Of a stretch of DNA of 64,000 nt, positions 12,477 to 41,488 are shown piece by piece (position 1 is the first letter of the stretch; every line of letters starts with the position of its first letter). Source of the DNA: an uncultured bacterium (GTDB lineage: Bacteria > Krumholzibacteriota > Krumholzibacteriia > LZORAL124-64-63). The stretch spans positions 17,933 through 81,932 of the forward strand of contig CALEMW010000069.1 in NCBI GenBank assembly GCA_937910695.1, in the 5' to 3' direction. The notes under the pieces are model-generated. The model saw only the letters and a list, made by a program, of their open reading frames with translations, did not search any database and was not told the origin of the DNA. Both the position numbers and the translations under genes were made by a program.

Positions 12477-12600
12477 GGCATGACTCCGGGGCCAGGGGCA
12501 GTGATCAGACGATTATGACAATGGTATATCTATTATATCACGAAAGATTCACGGTCATATATTTTGATTTATTATTCTTTTTTGACGCGCCAAGCTTGAT

Positions 12601-13554
12601 TCAACCGCCGTTCAGCACCCGCCGTGTCATGGCGATCTTCTGGGGCCCGATCCGGCAACAGCCGCCGATGCCTTGCGCCCCTGCGGAGAACCATGACCGC
12701 ACGCGGTCTTCCCACAGCACGTCCGAGACGGCGGGACACCAGGTCCTGCTCGTCGCATCGTAGGTTTCACCGCTGTTGGGGTAGACGATGATCGGTCCGT
12801 CGGTCTCCGCACGTGCGGCGGAGATCAGCGCTGCGACATGATCCGGCGCCGTGCAGTTGACGCCCACGGCAACCACGCGCCCCGCCCCCGCACACAGGCG
12901 AACCGCATCGACGAAGCGGCTGCCGTCGTTCAAGTGGACGCCGTCACGGCAGCTGAAACTGAACCAGGCCCAGACGCCGGGCGTGTCTGCGAGCAGCCCC
13001 AGAAGCACGGCGGCCTCGCGGAGGGACGGGATCGTTTCGCAGGCCAGGAGATCGGCCTCCGTGTCGGCCAGGATCCCCCAGCGAGGAGCGTGAAAGGCCC
13101 GCAGAGCTCCGTCGTCGATGTCATAGCGGCCCGAATATTCCGAGCCGTCGGCTAGGTAGGCGCCGTAAGGACCGATGCTCGCCGCGATCAGCGGCGTCGA
13201 CCTCGCGGCGGCGGCCTCCTGGGATTCCAGGAACTCCCGCCGCGCCTTGACGGCGAGGTCGACCGAACTCCGGATCGCCGCCGCACCCGCCTCCGCGTTC
13301 AGGCCGCAGCGGGCGAAGCCGTCCAGGCTGGCCTGATAGCTCGCGGTGATCAGACAGTCTGCGCCCGCGCCCAGGAATTCCCGATGCACTCTGAGAACGG
13401 CGCCGGGATTCTCCAACAGGAGGCGGGCGGACCACAGCTCGTCGTTCAGATCGTGCCCATGCGCTTCCAGGGTCGTGGCCAGACCTCCGTCGAGAACGAC
13501 GAAGCCCTGTCGGTCGAGCATGTCCTTGAAGGGATCGACGAGACCTGGAACCAT
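12601..13554 (-). CDS. mmuM: Homocysteine S-methyltransferase.
   Basis: The sequence from the internal Met (MVPGLVDPFKDMLDRQGFVVLDGGLATTLE...GVNCTAPDHV...GIGGCCRIGPQKI) matches the Pfam02574 homocysteine methyltransferase family. The start at 13554 overlaps the upstream gene's stop (ATGA). The 118 upstream track codons are R/G-rich and not real. Confidence 0.75.
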   Translation of the reverse strand: MVPGLVDPFKDMLDRQGFVVLDGGLATTLEAHGHDLNDELWSARLLLENPGAVLRVHREFLGAGADCLITASYQASLDGFARCGLNAEAGAAAIRSSVDLAVKARREFLESQEAAAARSTPLIAASIGPYGAYLADGSEYSGRYDIDDGALRAFHAPRWGILADTEADLLACETIPSLREAAVLLGLLADTPGVWAWFSFSCRDGVHLNDGSRFVDAVRLCAGAGRVVAVGVNCTAPDHVAALISAARAETDGPIIVYPNSGETYDATSRTWCPAVSDVLWEDRVRSWFSAGAQGIGGCCRIGPQKIAMTRRVLNGG

Positions 13555-15080
13555 CACGCACCCCCCGGTCCCCTCCCGCACCAGAACGTCCGCACATGAT
13601 GCGGATCGTCCGGTCCCGTAGGAAAGTCCAAAGGCGGCGACAACTCCACGGCCGTGCCGAACGCGTCGATGACCGCCCGCAGATATTCCTGATGATCGCC
13701 GCCGCGATGATTGTTTGCGAAGACCGCCACACCACCGTCGGCCAGCAGTTCCGCCGCCGCCAGCGCCAGGGGCCGCCACTCCTTCTCGACCGAAAACGAT
13801 CCGCCGTCCTTCGACGAGGCGAACACCGGCGGATCGCACACGATCAGATCGAAGGGCTGGAACTCTTCCGGCCGCTCCCGTCGGCGTCGTTGTTGGCGCT
13901 GCAGCCACTTGCGCACGTCCTGCTGCACGAACTTGCCGCGTTTCGTTTCGGTCAGCCCGTTGAGTTCGAAGTTGGTCATGCCGGTGCTGAGGCAGGCTCG
14001 AGCTACATCCACCGAAAAAGCCACCTCGGCAGCGGCGGCCGTCGCGGCCACGGAAAATGAGCAGGTGTAAGCAAACAGATTGGCCAATCGCTTCCCTGCG
14101 GCCATGACCGCGAGGCGGCGACGCGTATCGCGCTGATCGAGGAACAATCCCGTGTGCTGGGTTTCGGTAAGACTGACCTCATAACGAAGATCGTGCTCCC
14201 GCACCGTAAATCGAGCGGGAGGCGTCTCCCCGACGATGGTCGTCTCGGTCACCAGGGTCCGCTGATGAGGATTGCGACGATGGATGCGCATCGTGCCCCC
14301 GCGGCAGCCGTATGTGGCGGCCGTCCGGACGAGGATCGGCTCCAGAGCCGCACGGGCCGTGTCGAGATCGACTGACTCATCGAACCACACACCGTCGAAC
14401 CAGTCACCGTACACATCGACGGCGGCGGGCAGACCGGGGATCTCGTCGCGGTGGACGGCGCGGAAGGCGTCGGTGATCGCGGACAACCAGCGGCCGCGGC
14501 GGTCGCAGCACAGGTCGAAGGCCGGATCACGTCCCTCGGCCAGAGCCGCGAACGACGGGGGCGTCGGAGCCGTCATCGGTACAGAGAAATCGTTGCAGAC
14601 GATCTCGGCGCAATGGAGGCCGAGACGGGGCCAGGTTCGGCCGCCTGCGGATCCATCGCCAAGCAGAGGCACACCGGACGAGGCGGCGAGACGGCGAATC
14701 CTGTCGGAATCACCAACTTCGGCATCGGCTCGATAGAATACAAAACCGTCGCTGGCGTCGATGCGTTCGAAGCGGATCGGCGGCACCGCGTCGCCGAGAG
14801 GGTCGGTGCAGGTCCAGACATCGTCGCGGCCGAGGATGCGGACATCGACATGGGATATCAGATCGTAGACCGCGCGACCTTCAAGTTTCTGCGTTCCGGT
14901 GCCGGTGCAGAGAAAAACGCCGCTCGCGCCGCGCTCGAGACGACCGGTCGGACAGACTGCTTCTCCCAGATGGAGGGCTAGCCATTCGACAGCTCCGAGC
15001 TCCCCCGAACGCTCCGCTTCGGCAGCCATACCGGCGGGTTTATCCACCGCCAGGAGGTGATCGTCCCGGAAGAGAATCAT
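13554..15080 (-). CDS. Fusion of an RluA-family pseudouridine synthase-like domain with an RlmI-like class-I SAM-dependent rRNA methyltransferase.
   Basis: The N-terminal part has RluA motifs (MILFRDDHLLAVDKPAGM...PTGRLERGASGVF...GLHCAEIV). The C-terminal part is an RlmI-like MTase (AYTCSFSVAA...FELNGLTETKRGKFVQQDVRKWL...FDLIVCDPPVFASSKDG...GGVAVFANN). The start is placed at Met 72 because ATGA overlaps the upstream amidohydrolase stop; the first 71 track codons are R/G-rich. Confidence 0.7.
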   Translation of the reverse strand: MILFRDDHLLAVDKPAGMAAEAERSGELGAVEWLALHLGEAVCPTGRLERGASGVFLCTGTGTQKLEGRAVYDLISHVDVRILGRDDVWTCTDPLGDAVPPIRFERIDASDGFVFYRADAEVGDSDRIRRLAASSGVPLLGDGSAGGRTWPRLGLHCAEIVCNDFSVPMTAPTPPSFAALAEGRDPAFDLCCDRRGRWLSAITDAFRAVHRDEIPGLPAAVDVYGDWFDGVWFDESVDLDTARAALEPILVRTAATYGCRGGTMRIHRRNPHQRTLVTETTIVGETPPARFTVREHDLRYEVSLTETQHTGLFLDQRDTRRRLAVMAAGKRLANLFAYTCSFSVAATAAAAEVAFSVDVARACLSTGMTNFELNGLTETKRGKFVQQDVRKWLQRQQRRRRERPEEFQPFDLIVCDPPVFASSKDGGSFSVEKEWRPLALAAAELLADGGVAVFANNHRGGDHQEYLRAVIDAFGTAVELSPPLDFPTGPDDPHHVRTFWCGRGPGGA

Positions 15081-16720
15081 CGGATCCGCTCGCCCCCCAC
15101 GAAGACGGCCGTCGGTACGGCCTTCAGCCAAGCCGTCGGCTCGTTGCGGGGATCGATGTCCATGACCGTCACATCGAAGAAGCAACCCGGCGCAATCCTG
15201 CCCAGATCCTCTTCGCGATGCACGGCATAGGCCGCTTCGGCGGTGAACCCGGCCACCGCTTCCTGCCAGGTCAGTCTCTGTTCCGGAAACCAACCGCCGT
15301 CCGGATGTCCCTCGACGTCCTGGCGTGTGATCGCTGCGTAGATGCCCGGCATGGGATTCCAGTCTTCCACCGGTGCGTCGCTGCCCAACGGCAGGTGTGT
15401 ACCTGCATCGACGAACGTACGCCAGGCATAGGCGCCCTTCACCCGCTCGGCCCCGAGCCTCTGCTCGGCCCAGCGCATGTCACTGGTGCAGTGGGTGGGT
15501 TGAACACTGGCGACTGCGCCTTCGGCGACGAAGCGAGCGAAGTCGTCGGGATGAACAACCTGGGCGTGCTCCACTCGATGCCGCCTGCCGAGCGCGCCGT
15601 ACTGCGCCTTATGGATGGCGTCGAGGGCCGTGCGATTGCCGCGGTCGCCGATGGCGTGGATCGCGCACTGAAACCCGCGACGGTGCACCATGTCGACCCG
15701 GCGCTCCAGCTCCATGGGATCGGTCACCAGCAGCCCGCGCTGGGTCGGCTCGTCGTCGTACACGGCGAGCAGAGCGGCACCCCGGCTGCCCAGGGCGCCG
15801 TCGGTGTAGTACTTCATGCCCTGAACCATGAAGTTGGGATGGGGGGCGTAGCGACTCATGGCGGCCATCGTGTCGTCTTCGGAACCTTCGAGGTACACGA
15901 ACAGACGGATCGGCAGGCGCCCCGCGATGGCCAGCCGCTCGGCGATATCGCAGGTGGCTGTATTCTGACCCATGTCGTGCACGGCGGTCAGACCGACGTC
16001 GGCACAGGCGTTCAAACCCGCCAGCAGCCAACGTTCGCGATCGGCGTCTGTAGGCACGGGCAGAACCGGATCGAGCAGATCGACGGCGTTGTCCACCAAT
16101 ACGCCGGTAGGCTCGCCGGCGGCGTCGCGCAGGATGCGGCCGCCATCGGGGTCTGGAGAGTCACGGGTGATGCGCGCCAGATCGAGCATCGTCCTGTTGA
16201 TCCAGGCGGCGTGGCCGTCGACGCGGCGCAGCACCATCGGCCGAGAGGAGACACCCTCGAGTTCACGCCACGAGGGAAACTCCCGATCCGGCCAGCGGCT
16301 CTGATCCCAGCCGCGACCGCGGACGACCGATACTTCGGGGTGGTCCTCGATCCAGGCTTGGACCAACGCAGCAGCTTCAGCCGCCGAGCCCGCGGACTCG
16401 AGGGCCACCTGTTCGCTACGCCTGCCGATGCCTGATACGTGCAGATGTGCATCGACCAGTCCGGCGGTGGCGAACGCACCTGGCAATTTGATGATCGGCC
16501 AGGGCGAACCCTTGGGCGTCTGGGCGTAGACTTCGACGATGCGGCCTGTCGCGTCGACTGCTACGGCTTCAGCTTGGGGCAGTTCGGCGTCGCCGGTCCA
16601 GAAGACGGGGCCGGTGTAGATGCGCATCGTGGCATCTACGTTTTCCACGGGGTTCTCCTGGGCTATGGCTACGCCGACGGCCAGCGCAACGATCAGTGCA
16701 ATGATCGTGATCGATCGCAT
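15077..16720 (-). CDS. Secreted amidohydrolase-family metal-dependent hydrolase (Amidohydro_3/YtcJ-like).
   Basis: An AGGAGG RBS precedes the signal peptide MRSITIIALIVALAVGVAIA. The metal-binding motif LVDAHLHVSG is present, and the length (547 aa) and composition fit amidohydrolase 3. Confidence 0.7.
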   Translation of the reverse strand: MRSITIIALIVALAVGVAIAQENPVENVDATMRIYTGPVFWTGDAELPQAEAVAVDATGRIVEVYAQTPKGSPWPIIKLPGAFATAGLVDAHLHVSGIGRRSEQVALESAGSAAEAAALVQAWIEDHPEVSVVRGRGWDQSRWPDREFPSWRELEGVSSRPMVLRRVDGHAAWINRTMLDLARITRDSPDPDGGRILRDAAGEPTGVLVDNAVDLLDPVLPVPTDADRERWLLAGLNACADVGLTAVHDMGQNTATCDIAERLAIAGRLPIRLFVYLEGSEDDTMAAMSRYAPHPNFMVQGMKYYTDGALGSRGAALLAVYDDEPTQRGLLVTDPMELERRVDMVHRRGFQCAIHAIGDRGNRTALDAIHKAQYGALGRRHRVEHAQVVHPDDFARFVAEGAVASVQPTHCTSDMRWAEQRLGAERVKGAYAWRTFVDAGTHLPLGSDAPVEDWNPMPGIYAAITRQDVEGHPDGGWFPEQRLTWQEAVAGFTAEAAYAVHREEDLGRIAPGCFFDVTVMDIDPRNEPTAWLKAVPTAVFVGGERIR

Positions 16721-18348: not shown

Positions 18349-18499
18349 GGGATCCTCCGAGTGGAATGGTGCGGAGGAATCCTAACCAGTTCGGGTCCGA
18401 ACGTCTGGACTTTTTCTCGAAATTCATCTTGATATTCGTACATATATCAATTATCTTCCTTGTTCATCCCCTCCCGGATCGAGAGCGTGCCCCGTGTGC

Positions 18500-19504
18500 A
18501 TGACAACGTTCCGCCCCGGCCTCCCGGCAGCGGCGGTGCATGATCATCTGCAAGCTTCCCTGCAGCAGATGCTGAGCGCCGAACAGGCCGCCGTTCTCTG
18601 GTTCGCCGACATCCTCGAACGCCGGCTCTATCGCGATCTCGGTTTCGGGACGATGATCCTCTACGCTCAAAACGCTCTCGGCTTCTCGCGCAGCAAAGCC
18701 TATGAATTCCTGCGTATGGCCCGGGAACTCGAGCGGCTGCCGCGAACGCGGAAGGCGGTCGAATCAGGGAACCTCTCCTGGACCAAGGCGCGGGAAGTCA
18801 CGAGCGTGGCCACCCCGGCCACCGAGAGTGCTTGGCTCGATGTGGCGAACACGTCGAGTCAGCGTGCATTGAAGACGTCGGTGAAGCAGACGAAAAATCG
18901 CCGCGCCGCCGCTGCTTGCGGACAAGCCGAGCTCGTGCCTGTCGAGCCTCTTCCCCCCGCCGAACCCCGAGTCTCGACGACATTGTCCCTGACCGCGACC
19001 CAGCGTGAGCGACTCGATACTCTCCTCGAAACACTGCGAAAGAACGGCGAAACCGGCTCCCGGGAAGATCTGCTGCTCCAGGGCCTGGAACTCCTCGCCG
19101 GTGATAAGTCCAGACGTCTGGACTCGGGGCCGGCTCAGCTGATCGTCATCGAGGAATGTCCGAAGTGCGGCGCGGCCGCGACGGGTGGCCGTCCCCTCGA
19201 TCCCGCCGATCTGGAAGCCGCCCGCTGCGACTCCGTCCTTCAGCAGGAAGGCCGCAACCGCGCCGTCATCCCCCCGTCGCAACGGCGCCGGGTCCTGGCC
19301 CGCGACCACCATGCGTGCACAACGGCCGGGTGTATGTCGCGGCGGTTTCTTCAGATCCATCACATCGTGCCGCGATCTGCAGGCGGCGCCAATACCATCG
19401 ACAATCTCACGACGCTCTGCAGTTCCTGTCATCAATCAGCCCATAAGAGAACCCGGCCGTCGAGCCCGCTGAGACTCGACGGCCGGGTGAAGTCTCCCCC
19501 ATAG
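18500..19504 (+). CDS. HNH endonuclease (DUF222/13E12-repeat-family-like N-terminal region plus HNH nuclease motif).
   Basis: The C-terminal region carries the HNH motif ...RRVLARDHHACTTAGCMSRRFLQIHHIVPRSAGGANTIDNLTTLCSSCH.... The N-terminal ~250 aa resemble DUF222. The alternative GTG start at 18494 is noted. Confidence 0.65.
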   Translation: MTTFRPGLPAAAVHDHLQASLQQMLSAEQAAVLWFADILERRLYRDLGFGTMILYAQNALGFSRSKAYEFLRMARELERLPRTRKAVESGNLSWTKAREVTSVATPATESAWLDVANTSSQRALKTSVKQTKNRRAAAACGQAELVPVEPLPPAEPRVSTTLSLTATQRERLDTLLETLRKNGETGSREDLLLQGLELLAGDKSRRLDSGPAQLIVIEECPKCGAAATGGRPLDPADLEAARCDSVLQQEGRNRAVIPPSQRRRVLARDHHACTTAGCMSRRFLQIHHIVPRSAGGANTIDNLTTLCSSCHQSAHKRTRPSSPLRLDGRVKSPP

Positions 19505-25233: not shown

Positions 25234-25578
25234 TCAGATCCGCATCACGCGCTCCGCCGAGTTCATCAGCGACAGGATCTCCACCATCGTACTCACGCGC
25301 CCAACCGTCAGTTCGCTCTTCTTTTCGAACCAGTCGAGACAAGTCCCGCAACACAGCAGTTCCACACCCGCCGCGGAAAGACCCCGCAAATCAGCCAGTG
25401 CATGGGACCCCTCGCAACACAGCAGCACACCCGCATTCATGAACATCACATGAGACGGCAACCCACCCTCCATCTTCCCCAGATTCTTCATCGCCGCCAA
25501 CATCAACGCCCGCCCCAACTCGTCGTCTCCCCGCCCCAACCGATCCCCCCCCACAAACACCACCGTCTTCACACTCAT
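25234..25578 (-). CDS. DsrE/DsrF-family small protein resembling the C-terminal domain of YedF (selenium metabolism protein).
   Basis: MSVKTVVFVGGDRLGRGDDELGRALMLAAM...GVELLCCGTCLDWF...MVEILSLMNSAERVMRI has the fold-level motifs of the DsrE-like family (GxGxD...CGTC...E.L..A.KV). No TusA domain lies upstream. The 60 upstream track codons read through a hairpin and are rejected. Confidence 0.55.
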   Translation of the reverse strand: MSVKTVVFVGGDRLGRGDDELGRALMLAAMKNLGKMEGGLPSHVMFMNAGVLLCCEGSHALADLRGLSAAGVELLCCGTCLDWFEKKSELTVGRVSTMVEILSLMNSAERVMRI

Positions 25579-25656
25579 CCCCCCTCCCCACTCACCCACC
25601 CTGAACGAGGCCCCGGGCCCAAGCCCGGGGCCAAAGTTGCCCCCCCCATCCCTCAA

Positions 25657-25722
25657 GGAAATCGGAAGGGCCGTCAGAATCGATGTCAGGCTGTTTCGAT
25701 TCTGACGGCCCTTCCGATTTCC
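25657..25722. repeat. Perfect 27-bp inverted repeat (66-nt hairpin) immediately 3' of the M6 protease stop codon.
   Basis: The left arm is ggaaatcggaagggccgtcagaatcga (25657-25683), the loop is tgtcaggctgtt, and the right arm is tcgattctgacggcccttccgatttcc (25696-25722). The arms are exact reverse complements. The stop codon lies at 25724-25726 (minus strand) and no U-tract follows. Confidence 0.9.
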
Positions 25723-25723
25723 G

Positions 25724-28099
25724 CTACTTGAGAAGCGCGAGCTTCTGCACCTCCACAATCCTGTCCACCGTCAACCTGGCGAAGTAGACGCCTCCGGACA
25801 TCGTACGGCCCTCGCCGTCGCGGCCGTCCCAGAGCACCTGCTGCCAACCGGGTTCGCCGGTCACCTCGAGGTTGCGCACGGCGCGCCCGCGCTGATCGAA
25901 GATCACCATGGACACGTTTTTGGAGCCGGCCGGAATGTGGTACTTCAGCACCGTGGCCGGGTTGAACGGGTTGGGCTCGGCGGGCAGCAGCCGGGCGGTC
26001 ACGCCCATGCCGGGCAGATCGTCCACGCCTGTGCTCACATCGTTGGTGAAGGACACCTCGTCGATCCACCAACCGATGCCGCAGAAATCACCGTCTTCGG
26101 CCGACCAGGCGCCATCGCTGGTCATGCGCAGCCTGACATCGATGACGGCCACCCCCGAGCCGGTATCGCAGGCGCTGAGCACAGAACCCGGAATGGCCCA
26201 GGTGTCGGTCACACAGCTGCTCGCACCGTTGACCGCCGCGATCTGGGTCCAGGTGCCGTTGGCGTCGCCGGCGCAGCGCGCCTCGACGATACCGTAGTCG
26301 TAACCGGACTCCAGATCGTAATGATGACGCAGCGAGATGGTGGCGCCTGCAGTCACGGCCACGGTTTTCCAGGTGAAGTCGTCCCAGTTGTTGCCGTAGC
26401 CCGGAGGGCAGACATAGTCGGGATTGTCGAGTCCGAACCAGAGTCCGCCGTTGCCGCTGCAGGTGCCTGCCTGGGTGAGGTCGTGGTGTACGTACCCGTC
26501 GCAGAACATCCAGCCGTCGGTGCCGGTTTCGAAGGTCGAAGTCAGAATCTTGTCGGGCGAGGCCGTCGGCTTGGCCTTGGCGCCGATGGTGAAGTCGACG
26601 ATCACATCGGTGCCGCTCAGGGCGATGTTCTCGATGGCGAGGCCCGTGGCGTCGCAGGAGTAGTCCTGGGCCGAAGGGATCGTGTTGTCGGCGAAGCGGT
26701 CGCGGTCGCGGGTGCCGACCCACTGTGTCGAGTCGGCGCTGAAGAACGAGAAGCCGGGCCACAGGTCGCCGTCGTCGCCGCGGTTGGGATTGACCAGGGG
26801 CAGCTCGCTGCCGTCGCGGGGCAGGTCGAGATGCTCGTAATAGCCGCCGGGAGTGAACCAGGGCGAGGACTCGACCACGTCGAGCAGACGGTGGTTCTCG
26901 TTGGAGTTTCCACCCACGGAATCGTCCACATGGTAGATGGCCAGGCCCTCGGGTGCGGCCAAGCCGTAGCTGATCTGCCGACGCACGAGGGATTCGTCGA
27001 AGCCCAGACGACGTCGGTTCTCCACCAGGAAGTACTCGTCGCCGGTGGTCGCACCGTCGCGCCAGATGCGGTAGGCGACGGCGTTGGTCTCGGCCGGGGG
27101 AATGGTCACGCCGGTGGTCGTGGCCGTGATGGTCGTGGGCGTCAGCCAGCCCATCTGCATCTTCGACCAGGCGGTCATATGCGAGGGGCTGCTGCCCGCC
27201 GGCTCGCCGTCGCGCCGGCCCCAGGAACCGCCGCTCATCAGGCCCCAGTTGCCGATGCCGCTGGAGCTGTAGTCGGTATCGTACACGTCGGGCAGACCGA
27301 TCACGTGGCCGTACTCGTGGGCGAAGACGCCGACGGTGATCTGGGTGCCGTCGGCCAGCATTTCTGGCTCCACCGAGTAACGGAAGAACGACACGCCGTC
27401 GTTGGTGGCGTGGCCCTGGTAGAAGGACCAGGCATGGGACCAGATGTCGTTGGTGTCGCCTGTCTCCTCGCGGCCGGGACCGGCATGCACGAAGAAGAGG
27501 GAGTCGACGTAGCCGTCGTCGTCGCCGGAATCGGGGATGCCGTCGGGGCCGTCGTTGTCGTACTGGCTGTAGTCGATGATGGGATCGAGCTGATCAATGG
27601 CGTCCTCGATCATCGATCGCACCTGACCGTAGTCGGTGGGCGTGATGGCCGAGTAGAGCGCCGCTGATGTGTTCCAGCCGTGAACGAGCCCCCCGACGCT
27701 GTAGGCGCCGTAGCTGTTCTCGATGTAGAAGTCGTTCATGCTGCCGGTGGGATAAGTGCCGGTCGAGAACATCATGTCGTCGTAGCCGGACTGGGGATGC
27801 GCCACCTGGTCGGCGGTGTGGTCGGTCCATTCGAACAGGATGACCAGGCAGGTGCCGGTGCCGGCGACCTTGTCCGGCGACGAGCCACGCTTGGCCTGCA
27901 TGGCGGCGTAGAGCTCGTCTTCGGGACGCAGCTTACTCTGTGGAATCATGCCGGCCAGGGCCGTGGTGCGGACAGGGCCGAACTGCTTGAGCAACTCCGG
28001 CGATGCGGAAACCGGACAGGGGACGTCGAGGGAATGGTCCGCGGCCGTCACCGGGCCGATGGCGAGCAAAATCGTGAGCGCAATGAGAAGGGTGCGCAT
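25724..28099 (-). CDS. M6-family (InhA-like) zinc metalloprotease with a T9SS C-terminal sorting domain.
   Basis: A GGAGG RBS and a signal peptide are present. The HExxH zinc site is VGVFAHEYGHVIGLPDVYD, characteristic of M6. The C-terminal tail is EPNPFNPATVLKYHIPAGSKNVSMVIFDQRGRAVRNL...WDGRDGEGRTMSGGVYFARLTVDRIVEVQKLALLK. Confidence 0.8.
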   Translation of the reverse strand: MRTLLIALTILLAIGPVTAADHSLDVPCPVSASPELLKQFGPVRTTALAGMIPQSKLRPEDELYAAMQAKRGSSPDKVAGTGTCLVILFEWTDHTADQVAHPQSGYDDMMFSTGTYPTGSMNDFYIENSYGAYSVGGLVHGWNTSAALYSAITPTDYGQVRSMIEDAIDQLDPIIDYSQYDNDGPDGIPDSGDDDGYVDSLFFVHAGPGREETGDTNDIWSHAWSFYQGHATNDGVSFFRYSVEPEMLADGTQITVGVFAHEYGHVIGLPDVYDTDYSSSGIGNWGLMSGGSWGRRDGEPAGSSPSHMTAWSKMQMGWLTPTTITATTTGVTIPPAETNAVAYRIWRDGATTGDEYFLVENRRRLGFDESLVRRQISYGLAAPEGLAIYHVDDSVGGNSNENHRLLDVVESSPWFTPGGYYEHLDLPRDGSELPLVNPNRGDDGDLWPGFSFFSADSTQWVGTRDRDRFADNTIPSAQDYSCDATGLAIENIALSGTDVIVDFTIGAKAKPTASPDKILTSTFETGTDGWMFCDGYVHHDLTQAGTCSGNGGLWFGLDNPDYVCPPGYGNNWDDFTWKTVAVTAGATISLRHHYDLESGYDYGIVEARCAGDANGTWTQIAAVNGASSCVTDTWAIPGSVLSACDTGSGVAVIDVRLRMTSDGAWSAEDGDFCGIGWWIDEVSFTNDVSTGVDDLPGMGVTARLLPAEPNPFNPATVLKYHIPAGSKNVSMVIFDQRGRAVRNLEVTGEPGWQQVLWDGRDGEGRTMSGGVYFARLTVDRIVEVQKLALLK

Positions 28100-28750: not shown

Positions 28751-30478
28751 ATGAAGAAGATGTACGCCCTCGTCCTGATCCTGACCGTGTTCGCGGCCGG
28801 GTTCGCTGTTGCGGACGAAGACAACGCCAAGCTCGAGAAAAAGATCAAGGACCTCGAGAAACGCCTGCGCCATGTCGAGGTCAAGGCGGCCAAGGACCGT
28901 ATGGAGTTCACCGGCGACATGCGCGTCGAGGTGAGCAACATCAACGCCGAAGTCGGGCCCTACGTGGACGGCATGACGGTTCAGAACGCCATGGCCCAGA
29001 CTCTGTTCTACTTCGGCATGAACCAGGACAACCCGACGGGTCCGCTGCCCATGACTCCCCTAGGCGGTCTCGACTTCACCGCTCTCGGAAACTACATCAT
29101 GGCCAACGGCGGCGACTATATGGCCTACGCCAATTCCATGACCTTCGCCGACCTCCAGGGCGGCATGATGGATCTGTTGACGGCCATGGCCCAGATGAAC
29201 GGCATGGATCCCTCGACTCTGACTCCTGCTCAGTGGGCCGGTCTTCAGGACCAGGCCATGCAGATGATGGCAGCCGCCCCCGGCGCCGACCAGGACGGCT
29301 ACGACTACAAGAACGACGTGCTCTACACCACGCGCCTGCGCCTCAACATGAACGCCAAGGTCGCCGAGAACGTCGACTTCCAGGGCCGCCTGACCATGTA
29401 CAAGCCCTGGGGCGACAGCTCCGGCGTGCAGGTCTTCAACGGCCAGAGCAACAGCCTGAACATCGACGGCACTTCGGGCCGTTACCCCAACAGCGACATC
29501 CTCCGCGTCGAGCGCGCCTACTTCAACTGGCGCCACATCGCCGACACGTCGTTCTACCTGAGCTTCGGCCGTCGCCCCAGCGCGGGTGGCCCGCCCATGC
29601 ACTTCCGCGACGACGAGATGCGCGCCGGCACGCCCCTGGGCACGCTCATCGACTTCGCCTTCGACGGCATCACCGCCGGCTTCACACCCTACGAGGGCGG
29701 CACGTTCCGCCTGTGCTACGGCCTGGGCTACGAGTCGGGATTCGGCTCCGCCGAGAACCTGAAGCCGGAGGCGAACCGTCTGAAGGACGCCCACTTCTTC
29801 GGCTTCAACTGGGACATGCTCAACAAGGACGGCATCACGATGCAGTCCACCGTCGCCCGCGCCTTCGACGTGACCGACGGCTTCAACGGCCTCGTCGTGC
29901 TGCCGGACAACCCGGTCAGCGGCGATGCCATCGGCGCGCCGATGGTCATGCGCTTCTCCCCCTCGGCCAACCTGGGCGACATCGACCTGGCCGGCCTGCT
30001 GGTGACCTACGAGAACGACCGGTTCGACCTGTTCGCCAGCTACAACATCATGAAGTCGCACCCCGATGCCGTGACCACGCCCTTCGGCGGCCTGTTCTGC
30101 GATCCCTTCGACACCCCCGAAGAGCAGACCGGCAAGATGGGCTACATCGGCGCCCGTTATAAGTTCAGCAACGACAAGACCAAGCTGGGCGTGGAGTACA
30201 ACGAGGGCAGCCAGTACTGGTTCAACTTCAGCCACGGCGCCGACGACATCTTCGCCCCGAAGACCGGCACCCGCGGCTCGGTGATCGAGGTCTACCTGAC
30301 CCACCGCATCGCCCAGAAGTTCCTCTGCAAGCTCGATTTTATGCAGTACGACTACGACTACAGCGGCTCGGGTTGGCACCTGGGCGCCCCCAAGGCCCTC
30401 GACGCCACGCCGATGCTCGGTTACCCGACCTTCGACAAGGCCACGGTCGTGTCGCTGAGCTCGACGGTGCGTTTCTAA
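28751..30478 (+). CDS. Outer-membrane beta-barrel protein with an N-terminal coiled-coil (DUF3373-like putative porin).
   Basis: A GGAGG RBS and the signal peptide MKKMYALVLILTVFAAGFAVA are present. A coiled-coil follows (DEDNAKLEKKIKDLEKRLRHVEVKAAKDR). The ~500-aa Gly/Tyr/Asn-rich alternating beta-pattern ends ...SLSSTVRF with a terminal Phe. Confidence 0.6.
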   Translation: MKKMYALVLILTVFAAGFAVADEDNAKLEKKIKDLEKRLRHVEVKAAKDRMEFTGDMRVEVSNINAEVGPYVDGMTVQNAMAQTLFYFGMNQDNPTGPLPMTPLGGLDFTALGNYIMANGGDYMAYANSMTFADLQGGMMDLLTAMAQMNGMDPSTLTPAQWAGLQDQAMQMMAAAPGADQDGYDYKNDVLYTTRLRLNMNAKVAENVDFQGRLTMYKPWGDSSGVQVFNGQSNSLNIDGTSGRYPNSDILRVERAYFNWRHIADTSFYLSFGRRPSAGGPPMHFRDDEMRAGTPLGTLIDFAFDGITAGFTPYEGGTFRLCYGLGYESGFGSAENLKPEANRLKDAHFFGFNWDMLNKDGITMQSTVARAFDVTDGFNGLVVLPDNPVSGDAIGAPMVMRFSPSANLGDIDLAGLLVTYENDRFDLFASYNIMKSHPDAVTTPFGGLFCDPFDTPEEQTGKMGYIGARYKFSNDKTKLGVEYNEGSQYWFNFSHGADDIFAPKTGTRGSVIEVYLTHRIAQKFLCKLDFMQYDYDYSGSGWHLGAPKALDATPMLGYPTFDKATVVSLSSTVRF

Positions 30479-30485
30479 GGAGTCC

Positions 30486-31892
30486 ATGATGAAGCGAGCG
30501 AGTGTGATGCTCCTGCTCGTCGCCATCGCGGCGGTATCCGGCCCCTCGGGGGCCGGCGCCGCCACGGCGTCGCATGCGGAGATGTTCGAGCACTACGAAG
30601 GCACGGCCACCTGCCTCGAATGCCACGAGGACGAGGCCGCCGCATTCTTCCACACCCAGCACTACCAGTGGCGGGGCGAGAACCCAGGCCTGGCCAACGT
30701 CGACGGCCAGCGCCTCGGCAAGATCAACACCATCAACGATTTCTGCACCAACCCGATGCCGAGCTGGATCGGCAACGCCGTCAACGAGGACGGCAAGGTG
30801 CTGGCCCAGGGTTGTTCGAAGTGCCACGCCGGTCTCGGCCTGAAGCCCGAGCCCGTGCTGTCGCGGGAGCAGCTCGAGAACATCGACTGCCTGATCTGCC
30901 ACGCGAGCGGCTACCGGCGCGACATCACCCAGGACGAGAACGGCAACGACGTGTGGCGCTCCATCCTCTGGGGCCGCAACCAGGCCGGCCTCGACGCCAT
31001 CGCCAAGCGCATCAGCCTGCCCGGCCGCAAGATGTGCCTGCGCTGCCATTCCGGCGCCGGCGGCGGTCCGAACTTCAAGCGCGGCGACATCGAATACGAG
31101 CTGGCCGAGACCGACCGCACCTTCGATGTGCACATGGGCACCGACGGCGCCGACATGGCCTGCATCGACTGCCACCGCGGCGACGACCACCGCGTGCGCG
31201 GCCGCGGCGCCGACCTCTCGGGTACCGACATGCCCCACGCCAACCTGCGCTGCACCGAATGTCACGACGCGAGGCCCCACGGCAAGCTGGTCCTGGACAA
31301 GCACGCCGAACGGATCGCCTGCGAGACCTGCCACATTCCGACCTTCGCCAAGCGCGACCAGACCGACATGGTCCGCGACTGGTCGACGCCCAAGTACCAC
31401 CCCGACGCCAAGAAGTGGTCGGCGACGATCACCATGGGCCAGGACGTGGTGCCCGAGTACGCCTGGTGGAACGGCATGACGATCCACCAGGAGATGGGCG
31501 TGAAGGCCGAAGCCGGCGACGACGGCGTGATCGCCACGATGCGGCCGGTGGGCTCGAAGAAGGACGATGGCTCGAAGATCTATCCCTTCAAGCTCCACCG
31601 CGGGCGTCTGCCCCGCCTCGTGAACCAGGGCTGGCTCGTGCCCCTGGCCGTGGACGAGTTCTTCGTGGACGGAGATCTCGAAAAGGCGGTGCAGGAAGGC
31701 GGCCACGTCGCCTACGGACTCGAGCACTTCGAGTACGAGTGGGTCGACGTGAAGCGCTACATGGGGATCTACCACGAGGTGCTGCCGGCGTCGGGAGCCC
31801 TCGACTGCCTCGACTGCCATAGCGAGGATGGGCGCTTTCCCTGGACCGCGCTGGGGTACAAGGAAGATCCTGTGTTGAAGCGGATGAAGTAG
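30486..31892 (+). CDS. Octaheme c-type cytochrome (8 CXXCH).
   Basis: An AAGGAG RBS and a signal peptide are present. The heme motifs are CLECH, CSKCH, CLICH, CLRCH, CIDCH, CTECH, CETCH and CLDCH. It lies 7 nt downstream of the barrel gene. Confidence 0.8.
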   Translation: MMKRASVMLLLVAIAAVSGPSGAGAATASHAEMFEHYEGTATCLECHEDEAAAFFHTQHYQWRGENPGLANVDGQRLGKINTINDFCTNPMPSWIGNAVNEDGKVLAQGCSKCHAGLGLKPEPVLSREQLENIDCLICHASGYRRDITQDENGNDVWRSILWGRNQAGLDAIAKRISLPGRKMCLRCHSGAGGGPNFKRGDIEYELAETDRTFDVHMGTDGADMACIDCHRGDDHRVRGRGADLSGTDMPHANLRCTECHDARPHGKLVLDKHAERIACETCHIPTFAKRDQTDMVRDWSTPKYHPDAKKWSATITMGQDVVPEYAWWNGMTIHQEMGVKAEAGDDGVIATMRPVGSKKDDGSKIYPFKLHRGRLPRLVNQGWLVPLAVDEFFVDGDLEKAVQEGGHVAYGLEHFEYEWVDVKRYMGIYHEVLPASGALDCLDCHSEDGRFPWTALGYKEDPVLKRMK

Positions 31893-35936: not shown

Positions 35937-37066
35937 GCAGAGCCCGATCGCTCGTACATCACACCGCGCTTCTTCAGCTCCTCGAGCAGGAACGCCGTCA
36001 GGCCGGGATCACGGCCCAGGAATTCCGGCGGCGTGATGCCCGTTTCGCGGTAGCGTCCCTCCGCGATCGCCCGCACGACCGAAGTGGCCGTATAGCCCGT
36101 GGTCCTCGCCATGGAATGGTGGCCCGACTCCGGATCCCAACGATCGACCAGACGCCAGACGATCTCCTGGTCGGCTCCACTTCGGTCACCGCACACGCGG
36201 ATCTCCAGCACCGTCACATCGCCTTCCCCTTCAGGCATGCGCCATTGCGCGGCCAGCAGCGGCAAGGTCACGTCGACCGGCCGCACGTCCACGCCGCCGG
36301 CGCGGCATGGTGTCTCATCGAAGAGCCCCACGTCGCGCAGCAGCTGCATCTGGGCCGCGGTGCCCGGCCAGCGCAGGGTCTTCTCGCGGAGGTCGGGCAC
36401 GCCGAGGGTGCGGGCGAGGGTGCGGATGCCGTCGGTGTTGAAGGATTCCAGTTCGCCGAGGCCGGGCCAATCGACACGTTCGACGTCGGACAGGGCGGGG
36501 CGCACGACTTCCTTGCCGCCCCGCAGATAGCGGGCGGGGCGTACGTACTCCTCGATCACGTCGGACGGGGAGAAGACCGAGCGGTAGTTCAGCGGCGGCG
36601 TGGGGTGTTCGGGCAGGCCGCCCACGAGTACCTCGACCGAGCGGGCGGTGTCGAAGGACCGCACGGCGTCCATGCAGAGCGCGCTGCCCATGCCGGGGAA
36701 TACGCCGCAGTCGACGACGGCGACGACGCCGCGTTCGCGGGCGAGGGCGTCGAGTTCGAAGGGGTCTTCGGGGAAGAAGGAGATCGACACCACGTCCACG
36801 CCGGCCTCGATGACCGCCTTCAAGGTGGCGAAGCCCATGTGGCCTGGCGTGGCTTCGATCACGAGGTCGGCCCCCGAGATCGCCCGGCGGATGTCGGACG
36901 CGCGGGACAGATCGGCCTCGCGGACGGCGACGTCGGCGCGGGCGGCCACGCGGCTCAGGGCCGCGACGTCGCGGTCGATCACCGTCACTTTGAACCTGGG
37001 GTCCGCCGCCAGATCCTCGGCCATGGGGGCGCCGACCAGGCCGGCGCCGAGCACGCTGATGTCCAT
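35933..37066 (-). CDS. Saccharopine dehydrogenase-family NAD(P)-binding oxidoreductase.
   Basis: MDISVLGAGLVGAPMAEDLA...KVTVIDRD is a Rossmann GxGxxG start and matches the Sacchrp_dh_NADP N-terminal fold. A GGAGG RBS is present. Length is 377 aa. Confidence 0.65.
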   Translation of the reverse strand: MDISVLGAGLVGAPMAEDLAADPRFKVTVIDRDVAALSRVAARADVAVREADLSRASDIRRAISGADLVIEATPGHMGFATLKAVIEAGVDVVSISFFPEDPFELDALARERGVVAVVDCGVFPGMGSALCMDAVRSFDTARSVEVLVGGLPEHPTPPLNYRSVFSPSDVIEEYVRPARYLRGGKEVVRPALSDVERVDWPGLGELESFNTDGIRTLARTLGVPDLREKTLRWPGTAAQMQLLRDVGLFDETPCRAGGVDVRPVDVTLPLLAAQWRMPEGEGDVTVLEIRVCGDRSGADQEIVWRLVDRWDPESGHHSMARTTGYTATSVVRAIAEGRYRETGITPPEFLGRDPGLTAFLLEELKKRGVMYERSGSA

Positions 37067-37133
37067 GTCTGACCTCCGCTGCGGAGGATCGTTCGGTCCG
37101 GGCTGTCCGTCCAGACCGAAATCTTCCAGCCGG

Positions 37134-37694
37134 TCAGCGCGCCGCCGTCTCCTCCAGCAGCGCCTTGAGCGCGTCGTAGTTCGCCGAGTCCCGCAGGTCG
37201 TGTTCGGTCAGGTTGTAGACCGCCACCGGCTCGTTCTCCCCGTCGAGGATCACGACGTCGCGGTAGGTCACGTCCCACGAGTTCCAGACGTCGACGGCGG
37301 TCATGTCCTGGAGCCAGGGGATGTCGCGTCCCTCGCACATGACGGCATTGTCGGCTTCCAGGTTCTGTTCGTTGATGCCCAGGATCGCGATGTCCGACCC
37401 GGTGCTCTTGGCCGCCAACTCTATCTGCATGGCATTGAGAAGCCCGAACTGGGCTTGGCAATAGCCTCAGCCGGCGTGGGAGAAATACCAGGCGGAGACT
37501 CCGCCGAGGTAGTCCCGGGGCGATACGGCGGTGCCCGACGTCGCCGACGTGGTATTGGCGTCGATGAGCGAGAAATTCGGGACCGCGTCGGCAGACACGA
37601 CGATCGGCGAAGTCGTGTCCTCATCGCAACCCCAGGCCACGAGGAGAACGAGCGCCGCCAGGGCAGCGAACATGGTCGAGCGAACGGATCTCAT
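37134..37694 (-). CDS. Candidate selenoprotein: AhpC/TSA-redoxin-fold (BCP/Prx-like) lipoprotein with an in-frame TGA (Sec) in a U-G-Y-C redox motif.
   Basis: Track ORFs 37467..37694 and 37134..37430 are in the same frame, separated only by TGA at 37467-37469. The read-through product is ...PNFSLIDANTTSATSGTAVSPRDYLGGVSAWYFSHAG-U-GYCQAQFGLLNAMQIELAAKSTGSDIAILGINEQN.... This aligns with the E. coli BCP region PDFSLPDQDG...[44 protein letters not shown]. An AAGGAG RBS precedes the first ATG only; there is no RBS before the second ORF. TGA is used as an ordinary stop elsewhere in the window, so this is not global recoding. Confidence 0.6.
37431..37466 (-). promoter_or_regulatory. Bacterial SECIS-like stem-loop immediately downstream of the in-frame UGA.
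   Basis: The mRNA reads UGA-GGC(U)AUUG-CC-AAGCCC-AGUUC-GGGCUU-CU-CAAUGCC. The 17-nt upper hairpin has a 6-bp stem and a GU-containing pentaloop, and starts 11 nt after UGA. The lower stem has a bulged U. This geometry matches the E. coli fdhF SECIS requirement. Confidence 0.45.
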
Positions 37695-37919
37695 GAAGTC
37701 TCCTTTGGTGTCCGGGACGACCCATGGGGTGGATCGCCCGCGAATGTCGGTTTCTCCTATCGTATCACAAGGCTTTCATGCCGACCACCCCCCCCCATCC
37801 GCCTGCCGCGACGGCACCCGAACAACGCGAACCCATCGTTGAACCTCCCGCGCCGCCCGCTATACTCACCCTTGCGTCGCGCTACGCCCTCATCCCGACG
37901 GACCAGGAGCCACCCCTCC

Positions 37920-39962
37920 ATGACCCCCCTCGACTGGACCATCCTGATTGCCATGTACGTGGCCATCGTCGCCGTCGTGGTGGTGACCCGGCGACACATG
38001 CGCAGCGTTTCCGACTACCTGGCCGCGGGACGTTCGGCGGGACGGTACCTGCTGACCATCAGCGCCGGCATCGCCGGCCTGGGGGCCATCACCGTGGTCG
38101 CCAACCTCGAGATGGGTTATCAGGCCGGATTCGCCATGGGCTGGTGGGGGCTGACGATGGCCCTGTTCGGGGTGATCGTCACGGTGAGCGGCTGGATCAA
38201 CTACCGCTTCCGGCGCACGAGGGCGCTGACCCTCGCCGAATTCCTCGAGCGGCGCTACAGCCGCAAGTTCCGTATCTACGCCGGCACGGTGGCCTTCGGA
38301 GCGGGGCTCATCAACTTCGGCATCTTCCCGGCGGTGGGCGCCCGGTTCTTCATCACCTTCCTCGGCCTGCCGGAAACGTGGCAGCTCGGAATGTTCGCCG
38401 TACCGGTGTTCCCGGCCCTGATGGCCGTGCTGCTGACCACCGCGGTCTACTTCGTGTTCGCGGGCGGGCAGGTGGCGGTCATGATCACCGACTTCGTGCA
38501 GGGCGCCTTCGCGAACCTGGTGTTCCTGATCCTCGCGGTCTACCTGATCGTGCAGGTCGGCTGGGGCGACGTGGGCGAGGTCATGGCGCAGACGGCGCCC
38601 GGTCACTCCAAGATCAACCCCTTCGACACGGGCTTCGTGGACGACTTCAACCTCACCTACTTCCTGATCGGGGCGATGGGCCTGTTCTATAGCGCCATGT
38701 CGTGGCAGGGCACCCAGGCCTACAACTCGTCGGCCCGGACCGCCCACGAGGGCAAGATGGGCGGCGTGCTCGGCTTGTGGCGCGGACGCTCCCAGGACGT
38801 GTTCATGACCATGGTGCCGATCCTGGTCTTCACGGTGATGAACCACCCCGACTGGACGGGCTTCGCCGGCGGCGTGCAGGAACAGCTGGCCACCATCGAC
38901 AACGAGGCGGTGCGCAATCAGATGCGCGCTCCCCTGGCCCTGGCCGCCCTGCTGCCCAAGGGACTGATGGGGGCCTTCGCGGCCCTCATGCTCGGCGCCT
39001 TCATCAGCACCCACAACACGTACCTGCATTCGTGGAGCAGCATCTTCATCCAGGACGTGGTGATGCCGTTCCGCAAGACGCCCCTGTCGCCCAAGACCCA
39101 CATGCGGCTGCTGCGCGGCGGCGTGGTGGGCGTGGCCGTGTTCATCTTCCTGTTCTCGCTGCTCTACAAGCAGAGCCAGGCCATCCTGCTGTTCTTCGCC
39201 CTGACCGGGGCGATCTTCGCCGGCTGGTCGGGGGCCGTGGTCATCGGCGGGCTGTACACGCGTTGGGGCACGACCGCCGCCGCCTGGGCAACAGGCATCA
39301 CCGGCGTGACCCTCACGGTCACCGGATTCGTGCTCGAACAGGCCCAGCGCTCATGGCGGGAAACCGGCGTCGCCTTCTGGGGAGTTTTGGACTTCGTAGG
39401 ACTGGAACGCGCAGAAGCGTGGGCGGCCTGGACCAGCGAACGTCTGCCCAACGGACAGCATATCTGGGGCTGGGCCATGTGGCTGTCGCTGGTGGTCTAC
39501 GTGGGCGTATCGATGGCCCAGCAGATGCATCGGCGGCGCCTGTTCGATCTCGACAGGATGCTGCACCGCGGTCCGTACGAAATCGCCGGTGAAGTGGAGC
39601 ACGGCACCGTCGCGGTCGGCCGGGGATGGCGCGCCCTGGGCGTCACTTCAGAATTCGGGTTCCGCGACAAGGTCCTGTATATTCTGACCTGGGGCTGGAA
39701 CATCGTCTGGGTGATCATCTTCGTCGCGGGGACCGTTTACTTCCTGACCCGCAACGTCGACAATGGCGACTGGAGCCGCTGGGACGGAGCATGGCTGCGG
39801 TTCTGGGAAACGAAGATCTGGATCGAGGTCGGTGTCTCGGCCATCGTCATCGTCTGGTTTACATGGGGTGGCATCCGTGACGTGAAGGCGTTGCTGCGCA
39901 CCCTCTCCTCAAGGGAGCGCGACCACGGCGACGACGGTTTTGTGAGCCGGAACGATTCGTGA
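37920..39962 (+). CDS. Sodium:solute symporter family (SSF) transporter.
   Basis: The 680-aa product has ~14 predicted TM segments, and its N-terminal MTPLDWTILIAMYVAIVAVVVVTRRHMRSVSDYLAAGRSAGRYLLTISAGIAGLGAITVVANLEMGYQAGFAMGWWG is typical of SSF. The real start at 37920 is an internal Met of the long track ORF 36600..39962. Confidence 0.75.
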   Translation: MTPLDWTILIAMYVAIVAVVVVTRRHMRSVSDYLAAGRSAGRYLLTISAGIAGLGAITVVANLEMGYQAGFAMGWWGLTMALFGVIVTVSGWINYRFRRTRALTLAEFLERRYSRKFRIYAGTVAFGAGLINFGIFPAVGARFFITFLGLPETWQLGMFAVPVFPALMAVLLTTAVYFVFAGGQVAVMITDFVQGAFANLVFLILAVYLIVQVGWGDVGEVMAQTAPGHSKINPFDTGFVDDFNLTYFLIGAMGLFYSAMSWQGTQAYNSSARTAHEGKMGGVLGLWRGRSQDVFMTMVPILVFTVMNHPDWTGFAGGVQEQLATIDNEAVRNQMRAPLALAALLPKGLMGAFAALMLGAFISTHNTYLHSWSSIFIQDVVMPFRKTPLSPKTHMRLLRGGVVGVAVFIFLFSLLYKQSQAILLFFALTGAIFAGWSGAVVIGGLYTRWGTTAAAWATGITGVTLTVTGFVLEQAQRSWRETGVAFWGVLDFVGLERAEAWAAWTSERLPNGQHIWGWAMWLSLVVYVGVSMAQQMHRRRLFDLDRMLHRGPYEIAGEVEHGTVAVGRGWRALGVTSEFGFRDKVLYILTWGWNIVWVIIFVAGTVYFLTRNVDNGDWSRWDGAWLRFWETKIWIEVGVSAIVIVWFTWGGIRDVKALLRTLSSRERDHGDDGFVSRNDS

Positions 39963-40879: not shown

Positions 40880-41488
40880 TTACTTGAGGCGGTCGGGAAA
40901 GGTCTTGCGGGCCTTGTCGACCTTGGGCCGCACCACCATCTGACAGTAGGCCTGATCGGGATTCTTCTTGAAGTAGTCCTGGTGGTAGCCCTCGGCCTCA
41001 TGAAAGATTTTCAGAGGTACGACCTGGGTCACGATCGGATCGGGCCAGCGCTTGGCCTGGATCCGGGTGGCCGCGGCGGCAGCCTCGCGCTGGGCGTCGT
41101 CGTGGGTCAGGATGATCGATCGGTACTGGGTACCACGATCGGCGCCCTGGCGGTCCTTCGTGGTCGGATCATGGATCTGGAAAAAGATGTCGAGCAGGGC
41201 CTCGTAGGTCACCACCTCGGGATCGAACGTGATCTGGATCACTTCGGCGTGACCCGTCTCCCCAGAGCACACCGACTTGTATTCGGGCTGTTCGGAATCG
41301 TCGCCGCCGGCGTAGCCCGACACAACGCTCTTCACGCCGTCCATTTCCTCGTAGACGGCTTCCAAACACCAGAAACAACCCCCGCCCAGCGTGGCGCGTT
41401 CGGTTTTGGCCATGACGTCGGATCCTCCCAGGGCTACCGCTCCAGCAATGAGGAGCAGGGCCGGTCTGATGATCATTCCCAGCTTCAT
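40880..41488 (-). CDS. msrA: Peptide-methionine (S)-S-oxide reductase MsrA (secreted form).
   Basis: An AGGAGG RBS precedes the signal peptide MKLGMIIRPALLLIAGAVALGG. The active site ATLGGGCFWCLEAVY and the rest of the product are MsrA-like. The 84 upstream track codons are rejected. Confidence 0.85.
   Translation of the reverse strand: MKLGMIIRPALLLIAGAVALGGSDVMAKTERATLGGGCFWCLEAVYEEMDGVKSVVSGYAGGDDSEQPEYKSVCSGETGHAEVIQITFDPEVVTYEALLDIFFQIHDPTTKDRQGADRGTQYRSIILTHDDAQREAAAAATRIQAKRWPDPIVTQVVPLKIFHEAEGYHQDYFKKNPDQAYCQMVVRPKVDKARKTFPDRLK

Follow-up and report, generated by a model that had tools for sequence, protein, structure and literature searches.

A probable selenocysteine-containing thioredoxin-fold protein encoded across an in-frame TGA in an uncultured Krumholzibacteriota bacterium

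We describe here a gene found on the minus strand (37694..37134) of a 64-kb stretch of DNA from an uncultured bacterium of the Krumholzibacteriota (contig CALEMW010000069.1, assembly GCA_937910695.1; the whole stretch of 64,000 nucleotides is called the window throughout). The gene is interrupted by a TGA at codon 76 and very probably codes for one selenoprotein of the family NF053656, in which this UGA is recoded as selenocysteine (Sec or U). A first-pass annotation, made from the sequence alone, had proposed a selenoprotein at this place, and several lines of evidence now support it: Cys stands at the position of the UGA in full-length homologues, TGA is kept at this codon in nearly all the gene copies retrieved, a covarying hairpin of the SECIS (selenocysteine insertion sequence) type follows the UGA, and the matching NCBIfam model is itself that of a (seleno)protein. 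The gene is a previously mis-called member of a selenoprotein family that is already curated by NCBI, and the mechanism of recoding is a textbook one.

A single reading frame across the TGA

Translation from the ATG at 37694 gives 75 codons, the TGA at 37469..37467, another 110 codons and a final stop, again TGA, at 37136..37134, all of them in one frame (Table 1), and the read-through product is 186 aa long. Two open reading frames (ORFs) had been considered to be one frame split only by the TGA, and both this translation and a profile match that runs across the TGA (see below) agree with that description. Among all the TGAs in the six frames of the 64 kb, no other has 45 or more open codons and coding-type G+C content at third codon positions (GC3) on both sides; GC3 is 0.83 before this TGA and 0.85 after it (the G+C of the window is 64.6%). 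The start of the gene was also confirmed, as the Shine-Dalgarno-like AAGGAG is located at 37705..37700, in front of the first ATG, and inspection of the sequence upstream of the internal ATG at 37430 revealed no ribosome-binding motif of this kind. TGA terminates 13 of the 28 confidently coding ORFs of the window (this gene's own end included) and is therefore an ordinary stop in it, so that the recoding would be local, as had been suggested.

Table 1. Features of the putative selenoprotein gene, in window coordinates
Feature	Position	Strand	Basis
Shine-Dalgarno-like AAGGAG	37700..37705	-	5 nt 5' of ATG 37694; read from sequence
Complete gene of the predicted selenoprotein	37134..37694	-	186 codons including Sec76, plus TGA stop 37136..37134; single frame, NF053656 match, GC3
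Predicted signal peptide with lipobox-like end A-W-G-C (Cys23), then DED	37626..37694	-	translation; N-termini of homologues
TUGYCR-motif thioredoxin-fold domain (residues 38-182), spanning the TGA	37149..37583	-	hmmscan with NF053656.1; AlphaFold2 model of homologue P0004; Foldseek
UGA, predicted Sec codon (residue 76, first of U-G-Y-C)	37467..37469	-	Cys in 15 full-length homologues; TGA in 80/81 copies; three assemblies identical
TGC codon of Cys79, putative resolving Cys of U-x-x-C	37458..37460	-	invariant column in alignment A1
Candidate SECIS hairpin	37440..37456	-	6-bp stem AAGCCC/GGGCUU, loop AGUUC; covariation, RNAalifold, covariance model
Extended lower stem, 3 + 4 bp with a bulged U	37431..37466	-	RNAfold minimum free energy structure; columns 4-11 and 33-39 unpaired in most of 79 relatives

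Family membership and homologous proteins

When U was written as C, hmmscan matched the protein to NCBIfam NF053656.1 (redoxin_TUGYCR, "TUGYCR motif thioredoxin fold (seleno)protein") with 218.4 bits against a cut-off of 100 (E 3.4e-65). Residues 38-182 are aligned to positions 1-145 of the 146 of the profile in one alignment across the TGA, and this is the sole NCBIfam match of the protein at E <= 1. Three Cys-containing homologues match the same model at 188-220 bits. The window protein shares with the family the U-G-Y-C core, the length of the domain and the alternation of Sec and Cys, while the flanking T and R of the motif are replaced, as they are in other members (for example 'HAG*GYC' or 'C(S/G/V)xQ').

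A search of a large protein collection retrieved 95 relatives. Fifteen are full-length proteins with C-x-x-C at the motif (for example GHATCGYCSSQFG) and three have W at the U position. The other 77 are truncated at the UGA: four end exactly at the U position and 73 start downstream of the motif, mostly at the Met of a conserved "MQxEL", as would be expected of gene callers that stop at a Sec codon. In the JGI contigs of two relatives (P0023 and P0001) the gene layout shows two genes, of 76 aa and 105 aa, that share one frame. The TGA had been placed at the redox-active position of a U-x-x-C motif, an assignment that stands, since a Cys equivalent is present in the 15 full-length relatives, C79 is invariant and the part downstream of the TGA is conserved in frame. 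Two relatives (P0009 and P0014; see also locus L043) are two-domain versions whose first domain has lost both redox Cys (…GDALSASS…), and their called proteins stop at '…YYFGAAT', the exact Sec position of the second domain.

Other predicted selenoprotein families with a thioredoxin fold also have Sec as the first residue of a CxxC-type motif and the SECIS within the ORF, namely the 'Prx-like thiol:disulfide oxidoreductase' (PF00578), the 'Redoxin family protein' (PF08534), the 'Thiol-disulfide isomerase-like' family (cd02966) and GOS_C (NF045500) (PMC13188914, Table 1; PMC2398784). The window protein resembles them in these traits but does not match their NCBIfam models at E <= 1, and its match to Pfam Redoxin is below threshold. 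Cys forms far outnumber Sec forms in most families of this kind (PMC1088965), whereas Sec forms dominate in the one studied here. No paper describing the family under the name 'TUGYCR' was found and NF053656 is absent from the table of the 2026 selenoproteome review; apart from the NCBIfam model, the family appears to be undescribed in the searchable literature.

Conservation of the codon across phyla

Related loci were collected by a pattern search over one genome per GTDB species. Alignment A1 was too diverse for this purpose and alignment A2 was used, which provided 80 loci with 81 gene copies from at least five phyla: Myxococcota (Polyangia, Nannocystis, Archangiaceae), Planctomycetota, Verrucomicrobiota, Candidatus Eisenbacteria, Candidatus Krumholzibacteria and others. 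The encoded proteins are 39-60% identical to that of the window, and in most copies the stretch after U has 107-112 residues. The codon at the U position is TGA in 80 of the 81 copies (a count with a search bias that is discussed below) and TGC in the remaining one; TAA and TAG do not occur in any of them.

Such conservation of TGA over at least five phyla rules out, for all practical purposes, a pseudogene, i.e., a redoxin gene broken by a nonsense mutation of which only a 75-residue N-terminal fragment would be made. Gene callers do split the gene into ORFs of 75 aa and 98 aa in every assembly, and one relative (L084, described below) combines a TGG with a degenerate N-terminus, indicating that decay occurs in the family. 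However, the residues downstream of the TGA that are invariant in the family are kept in frame, a single hidden Markov model match spans the stop, GC3 does not change past it and the hairpin is maintained by compensatory changes, all of which make a broken gene extremely unlikely.

An error of sequencing or assembly at 37467..37469, with TGC or TGT as the true codon, would require the change of only one base in a sequence that is derived from a metagenome. Nevertheless, the 561-nt gene, TGA included, is identical in three fetched loci belonging to three independent ENA assemblies, and this identity excludes a sequencing error. Compared with the window without gaps, the flanks of these three loci show 36 to 1380 mismatches, a number that indels may have inflated. 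The half-proteins have separate entries without a name, on 15 and 24 contigs (NCBI, ENA, Logan), the 98-aa C-terminal ORF is recorded on 20 contigs, and the orthologues carry the TGA as well, so that we give this explanation practically no chance. Both alternatives had been raised in the first-pass annotation, and both are excluded by the conservation across phyla and the identical gene in three assemblies.

Some of the loci contain more than one copy. In L081 (942-2398) a Sec form is directly followed by a Cys form that keeps 5 of the 6 hairpin pairs, and L023, L025 and L046 have two Sec forms each. The copy of L084 (1005-1562, protein P0020) has a true TGG at the Sec position, an intact hairpin (6/6 pairs) and a degenerate N-terminal region; probably it either was inactivated recently or reflects a read error of an assembly made from a raw run. 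We had considered that the W of the database homologues was a mistranslated TGA; for P0020, the one of the three whose DNA was read, this was discarded, given its true TGG and intact hairpin. The other two proteins with W at this place are P0001 and P0002.

The hairpin downstream of the UGA

Directly 3' of the TGA the window reads GGCUAUUGCC-AAGCCC-AGUUC-GGGCUU, with a gap of 10 nt between UGA and stem (which starts at the 11th nt) and 16 nt between UGA and loop. We have compared it in a gap-free alignment of 48 nt from the TGA, comprising the window and 79 TGA-bearing relatives. The helix formed by columns 14-19 and 25-30 is paired in 96.6% of the cells (79 distinct sequences). Compensatory double changes are seen in five of its six pairs (75 cells), and the remaining pair is invariant. 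None of 500 column-preserving shuffles reached the observed values, sliding the 3' arm by 1-3 nt as a control gave a pairing of 26-52%, and RNAalifold, run without any prior structure, found exactly this helix and nothing else.

The arms of the hairpin are the codons +4/+5 and +8/+9 after U, and the amino acids that they encode change jointly while the pairing is kept (CGG AGC ... GGC UUC; AGU AGC ... GGC UAC; GGU GGC ... GGC CAC; CGC GCU ... GAG CGC). The stem of the window retains 6/6 pairs by using two A-U pairs seldom seen in the family. Four Cys-form genes keep 4, 5, 4 and 1 of the six pairs; five are kept by the gene that has a Sec-form paralogue in tandem. A covariance model (R1) built from the 79 relatives, with the window excluded, matches 37469..37422 with 53.5 bits (E 9e-13); the two other matches listed in the 64 kb are not significant (E >= 3).

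In bacterial SECIS elements 16-37 nt separate the UGA from the apical loop, which is small and contains a G (PMC10778597; PMC1088965). The hairpin of the window shows these published features, with 16 nt to the loop, a stem of 6 bp and the G of AGUUC (A-G-U-U-C/U in the family). Like the E. coli fdhF-type SECIS, it is located inside the ORF directly 3' of the UGA and has G-U in a small apical loop; unlike it, neither a bulged U nor a lower helix is conserved, and the stem is family-specific and interwoven with codons +4, +5, +8 and +9. The minimal fdhF element is a 17-nt upper stem-loop located 11 nt from the UGA. The structure first proposed for the window was larger than what is conserved: the 17-nt upper hairpin starting at the 11th nt after UGA is retained and covaries, but the lower stem of 7 bp that RNAfold draws, with its bulged U, is unpaired in most of the 79 relatives; it is specific to the window and probably not a part of the functional element.

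Observations that weigh against selenocysteine

The UGA could be decoded as something other than Sec, either by a reassigned code (TGA as Trp or Gly) or by near-cognate or programmed read-through (inserting Trp, Cys or Arg), the hairpin being then a generic stimulator. The three database homologues with W at this position, one of them truly TGG, would fit such a decoding, and the Sec machinery was not located in the window, its flanks or the fetched loci. On the other hand, TGA stops 13 of the 28 confident ORFs, this gene among them, and the homologues without TGA all have Cys except for the three with W, while Trp or Gly would be inactive at the nucleophilic site of CxxC. The position and form of the hairpin also fit the rules for bacterial SECIS elements (PMC10778597), and NCBI curators treat the family as one of selenoproteins. 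Taken together, these points make decoding by another amino acid very improbable.

A number of other observations count against our interpretation of the gene as coding for an exported selenoprotein. The motif of the window protein is G-U-G-Y-C-Q and not T-U-G-Y-C-R. The 80:1 ratio of TGA to TGC is inflated, as the search patterns derived mostly from Sec-type sequences, although the count of protein clusters, about 77 Sec-type to 15 Cys-type, goes in the same direction. The loop of the hairpin (CAG UUY) is also fixed by a conserved Gln-Phe, so that only the stem carries independent RNA evidence, and the energy of the single-sequence fold is not significant (z = -1.15). Rfam has nothing relevant at gathering thresholds in the whole window or at E <= 10 in 37300..37600; to our knowledge, it contains no general model of the bacterial SECIS. 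No selA, selB, selD or tRNA-Sec was detected in the 64-kb window (38 ORFs and a tRNA scan) or in about 8 kb past either end, where the flanks contain a nuo operon on one side and an extracytoplasmic function (ECF) sigma factor, a kinase and a transporter on the other. ARAGORN and tblastn with E. coli SelD and SelA sequences gave nothing in all the fetched loci, which is a weak negative. No neighbour is conserved across the 80 loci, the sole large cluster being an antisense shadow ORF and the best real neighbour reaching 6 loci. Lastly, the lipobox of the window protein, L-V-A-W-G-C, has a Trp at -2 that is atypical with regard to [LVI][ASTVI][GAS]C.

In favour of selenium use, an ORF of 174 aa within the window (25237-25758, minus strand) matches TIGR03527, 'sulfurtransferase-like selenium metabolism protein YedF', with 113 bits (cut-off 110) over profile positions 83-194 only, and no selD adjoins it. 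Judging from this match, the YedF-type gene may be taken as a weak hint of selenium use by the genome.

Fold and probable chemistry

The structure was modelled with AlphaFold2 (alignment of 33 sequences) on a Cys homologue, P0004, which is 49% identical to the window protein; the model has a predicted local distance difference test score (pLDDT) of 92.9 and a predicted template modelling score (pTM) of 0.84. In it, C63-G-Y-C66 comes after a strand (53-59), where a helix (64-81) begins, and the first Cys position is the classic site of the nucleophilic Cys of the thioredoxin fold. The invariant Pro of "PWLQD", directly before strand 114-116, would be placed at the site of the cis-Pro loop of thioredoxin-fold proteins.

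Foldseek against the PDB gave 576 matches at E <= 0.001, led by thioredoxin-fold oxidoreductases. The best were ResA of B. subtilis (1su9, E 1e-9, TM 0.66-0.82), DsbE (3gl3), CcmG (2b1k), TlpA-like proteins and Etrx1/2. The top 35 are all CxxC thiol-disulfide oxidoreductases, Bcp4 coming first at rank 36 and human Prx2 at rank 44. The family profile found nothing significant among the PDB sequences, the best relevant match being Etrx2 (E 0.2).

ResA, TlpA and CcmG (DsbE) share with the window family the thioredoxin fold, a redox motif located where the first long helix begins and an exported or membrane-anchored location. They differ in that Sec replaces the N-terminal Cys in the window protein, which has no significant sequence similarity to solved structures, and in the genomic setting, as no ccm or res cytochrome-maturation genes are found as conserved neighbours in the related loci. 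Pneumococcal Etrx1 and Etrx2 (4hqs, 4hqz, 2yp6) are likewise extracytoplasmic thioredoxin-fold proteins of CxxC type with a lipoprotein anchor; unlike the window protein they are Cys enzymes, and they provide the only relevant, weak, sequence match in the PDB. Etrx1 and Etrx2 feed an extracellular methionine sulfoxide reductase. The protein is best described as a ResA/TlpA-type thiol(selenol)-disulfide oxidoreductase, and we consider disulfide-reductase chemistry somewhat more probable than not.

The BCP-type alignment and fold that had initially been assigned to the protein are not borne out. BLASTP against E. coli BCP gives E 0.38 and 25% identity, collinear over about 170 residues, with U76 opposite Thr43 and C79 opposite the peroxidatic Cys46. 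Pfam Redoxin (PF08534) is reached with 18.2 bits against a gathering score of 26.6 and PF00578 is not matched at all (U written as C), while the nearest structures are ResA/TlpA/DsbE and Etrx. Membership of BCP/AhpC-TSA was rejected on these data, U76 falling on the Thr of TxxC. Both belong to the same broad thioredoxin-fold clan, but the spacing is UxxC in the window protein and CxxxxC in BCP.

The same selenoprotein could still act as a peroxidase (peroxiredoxin/BCP-like or GPx-like), with Sec76 reducing peroxides and Cys79 resolving the selenenic acid, an alternative that is nested within the gene structure and decoding given above. Selenols react rapidly with peroxides, some homologues have a precomputed PF00578 to add to the weak Redoxin match, and Bcp4 and human Prx2 do appear among the structural matches, although behind 35 thiol-disulfide oxidoreductases. 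Peroxiredoxins have T-x-x-C and their Sec versions T-x-x-U, whereas selenoproteins of the thiol-disulfide oxidoreductase type have U-x-x-C (PMC13188914, Table 1). Here, Sec comes first and lies opposite the Thr43 of BCP, in an alignment that is itself not significant. A peroxidase is thus an unlikely, if still reasonable, interpretation.

Export and lipoprotein features

The window protein begins with MRSVRSTMFAALAALVLLVAWGC-DED. The homologues of Eisenbacteria and Krumholzibacteria have hydrophobic N-termini ending in xGC(G/S/K)DD, and in the closest clades these ends are LAAGCGDD, AAVGCSDDD, FAFGCGDDE and APGCKDDD. A lipobox is present in 26 of the 81 homologue copies under a strict pattern and in 53 under a relaxed one. 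Planctomycetal members have plain signal peptides together with dockerin or PEP-CTERM tails. Judging from these N-termini and tails, the family is extracytoplasmic. The suggestion of a lipoprotein was only partly substantiated: a signal peptide with a lipobox-like Cys23 is present, and the lipid modification of the window protein is a prediction to be taken with caution given the atypical Trp.

Proposed mechanism and meaning

At UGA76, the 17-nt hairpin located 10 nt downstream would recruit SelB-GTP-Sec-tRNA(Sec), so that selenocysteine would be inserted in place of termination, while the terminal UGA of the gene, without a hairpin, would be read as a normal stop. The product would be exported, to the periplasm or to the external side of the cytoplasmic membrane, and probably lipid-anchored via Cys23. 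Sec76, located where helix alpha1 begins, would attack an oxidised substrate, Cys79 would resolve the intermediate to give a selenenylsulfide, and a membrane reductant of the DsbD/CcdA type may regenerate the enzyme. The insertion of Sec in this organism, the substrate and the redox partner are all put forward here as predictions.

We would tentatively suggest that the family is an essentially obligate selenium-dependent oxidoreductase of the cell envelope, given that 80 of 81 copies, belonging to at least five phyla, have Sec and that export is as a lipoprotein or with dockerin/PEP-CTERM tails, but we regard this generalization as doubtful. If true, soil and sediment bacteria (Myxococcota, Planctomycetota, Eisenbacteria and Krumholzibacteria) would have an extracytoplasmic redox pathway that requires selenium and is as yet uncharacterised. 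What is known of recoding does not change, as mechanism and family were already established and curated; the Sec bias, the envelope location and the covariation of protein and RNA are mildly interesting and would not surprise a specialist. The SECIS stem is written into positions +4, +5, +8 and +9 of the active-site helix, meaning that protein sequence and RNA pairing co-evolve. The gene would also add an uncultured lineage to the users of selenocysteine, probably one of the FCB group to judge from the type IX sorting domains of the window and from the nearest homologues, and point to an extracytoplasmic redox activity that depends on selenium. As regards annotation, the records of this gene and of most of its public relatives consist of two or more nameless fragments, and recoding restores a complete active-site enzyme.

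Genomic neighbourhood and other features of the window

The neighbours of the selenoprotein gene are a saccharopine-dehydrogenase-like protein, MntP, a sodium:solute symporter and a DUF1684 protein. A plus-strand ORF of 1120 aa (36600-39962) runs antisense to the selenoprotein gene. Its 5' third is a high-GC shadow ORF and the real gene in this region is the sodium:solute symporter, for which the gene-caller product of 680 aa would start near 37920 and which we have annotated from 37989. A comparable antisense shadow ORF exists in 40 of the 80 related loci.

MsrA (40883-41488, minus strand; TIGR00401, 196 bits) is encoded 3.2 kb from the selenoprotein gene and, having an N-terminal signal peptide (MKLGMIIRPALLLIAGAVALGG...), is probably periplasmic. 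When six window proteins were queried against the related loci, MsrA recurred once, and MntP, saccharopine dehydrogenase, the SSF transporter, DUF1684 and YedF never did. The presence of MsrA and the selenoprotein recalls the pneumococcal Etrx-MsrAB2 pair, but the linkage is not conserved (only one out of 84 related loci has an MsrA at 10 kb or less from the family gene), and a shared MsrA partner as in pneumococcus would be a speculation by analogy.

Further along the window, an octaheme c-type cytochrome of the tetrathionate-reductase family (30486-31892, plus strand) reaches 304 bits with TIGR04315, less than the cut-off of 375, and comes after a DUF3373 gene (28751-30478, plus strand). This octaheme family is listed among the GenBank-annotated selenoproteins in the 2026 selenoproteome review, and no candidate in-frame TGA was seen in the cytochrome of the window. 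A 336-aa ORF (18494-19501, plus strand) matches IscB, an RNA-guided endonuclease, below threshold (58.8 bits, cut-off 175) and over residues 263-320 only; this is probably no more than an HNH-type domain. In about 2.6 kb (12476-15077) there is no ORF with a clean GC3 coding signal, and long minus-strand ORFs overlap there (12601..13908 and 13554..15293). Large secreted proteins (9087-12476 and 61417-63999, both on the minus strand) carry C-terminal sorting domains of type IX secretion (TIGR04183).

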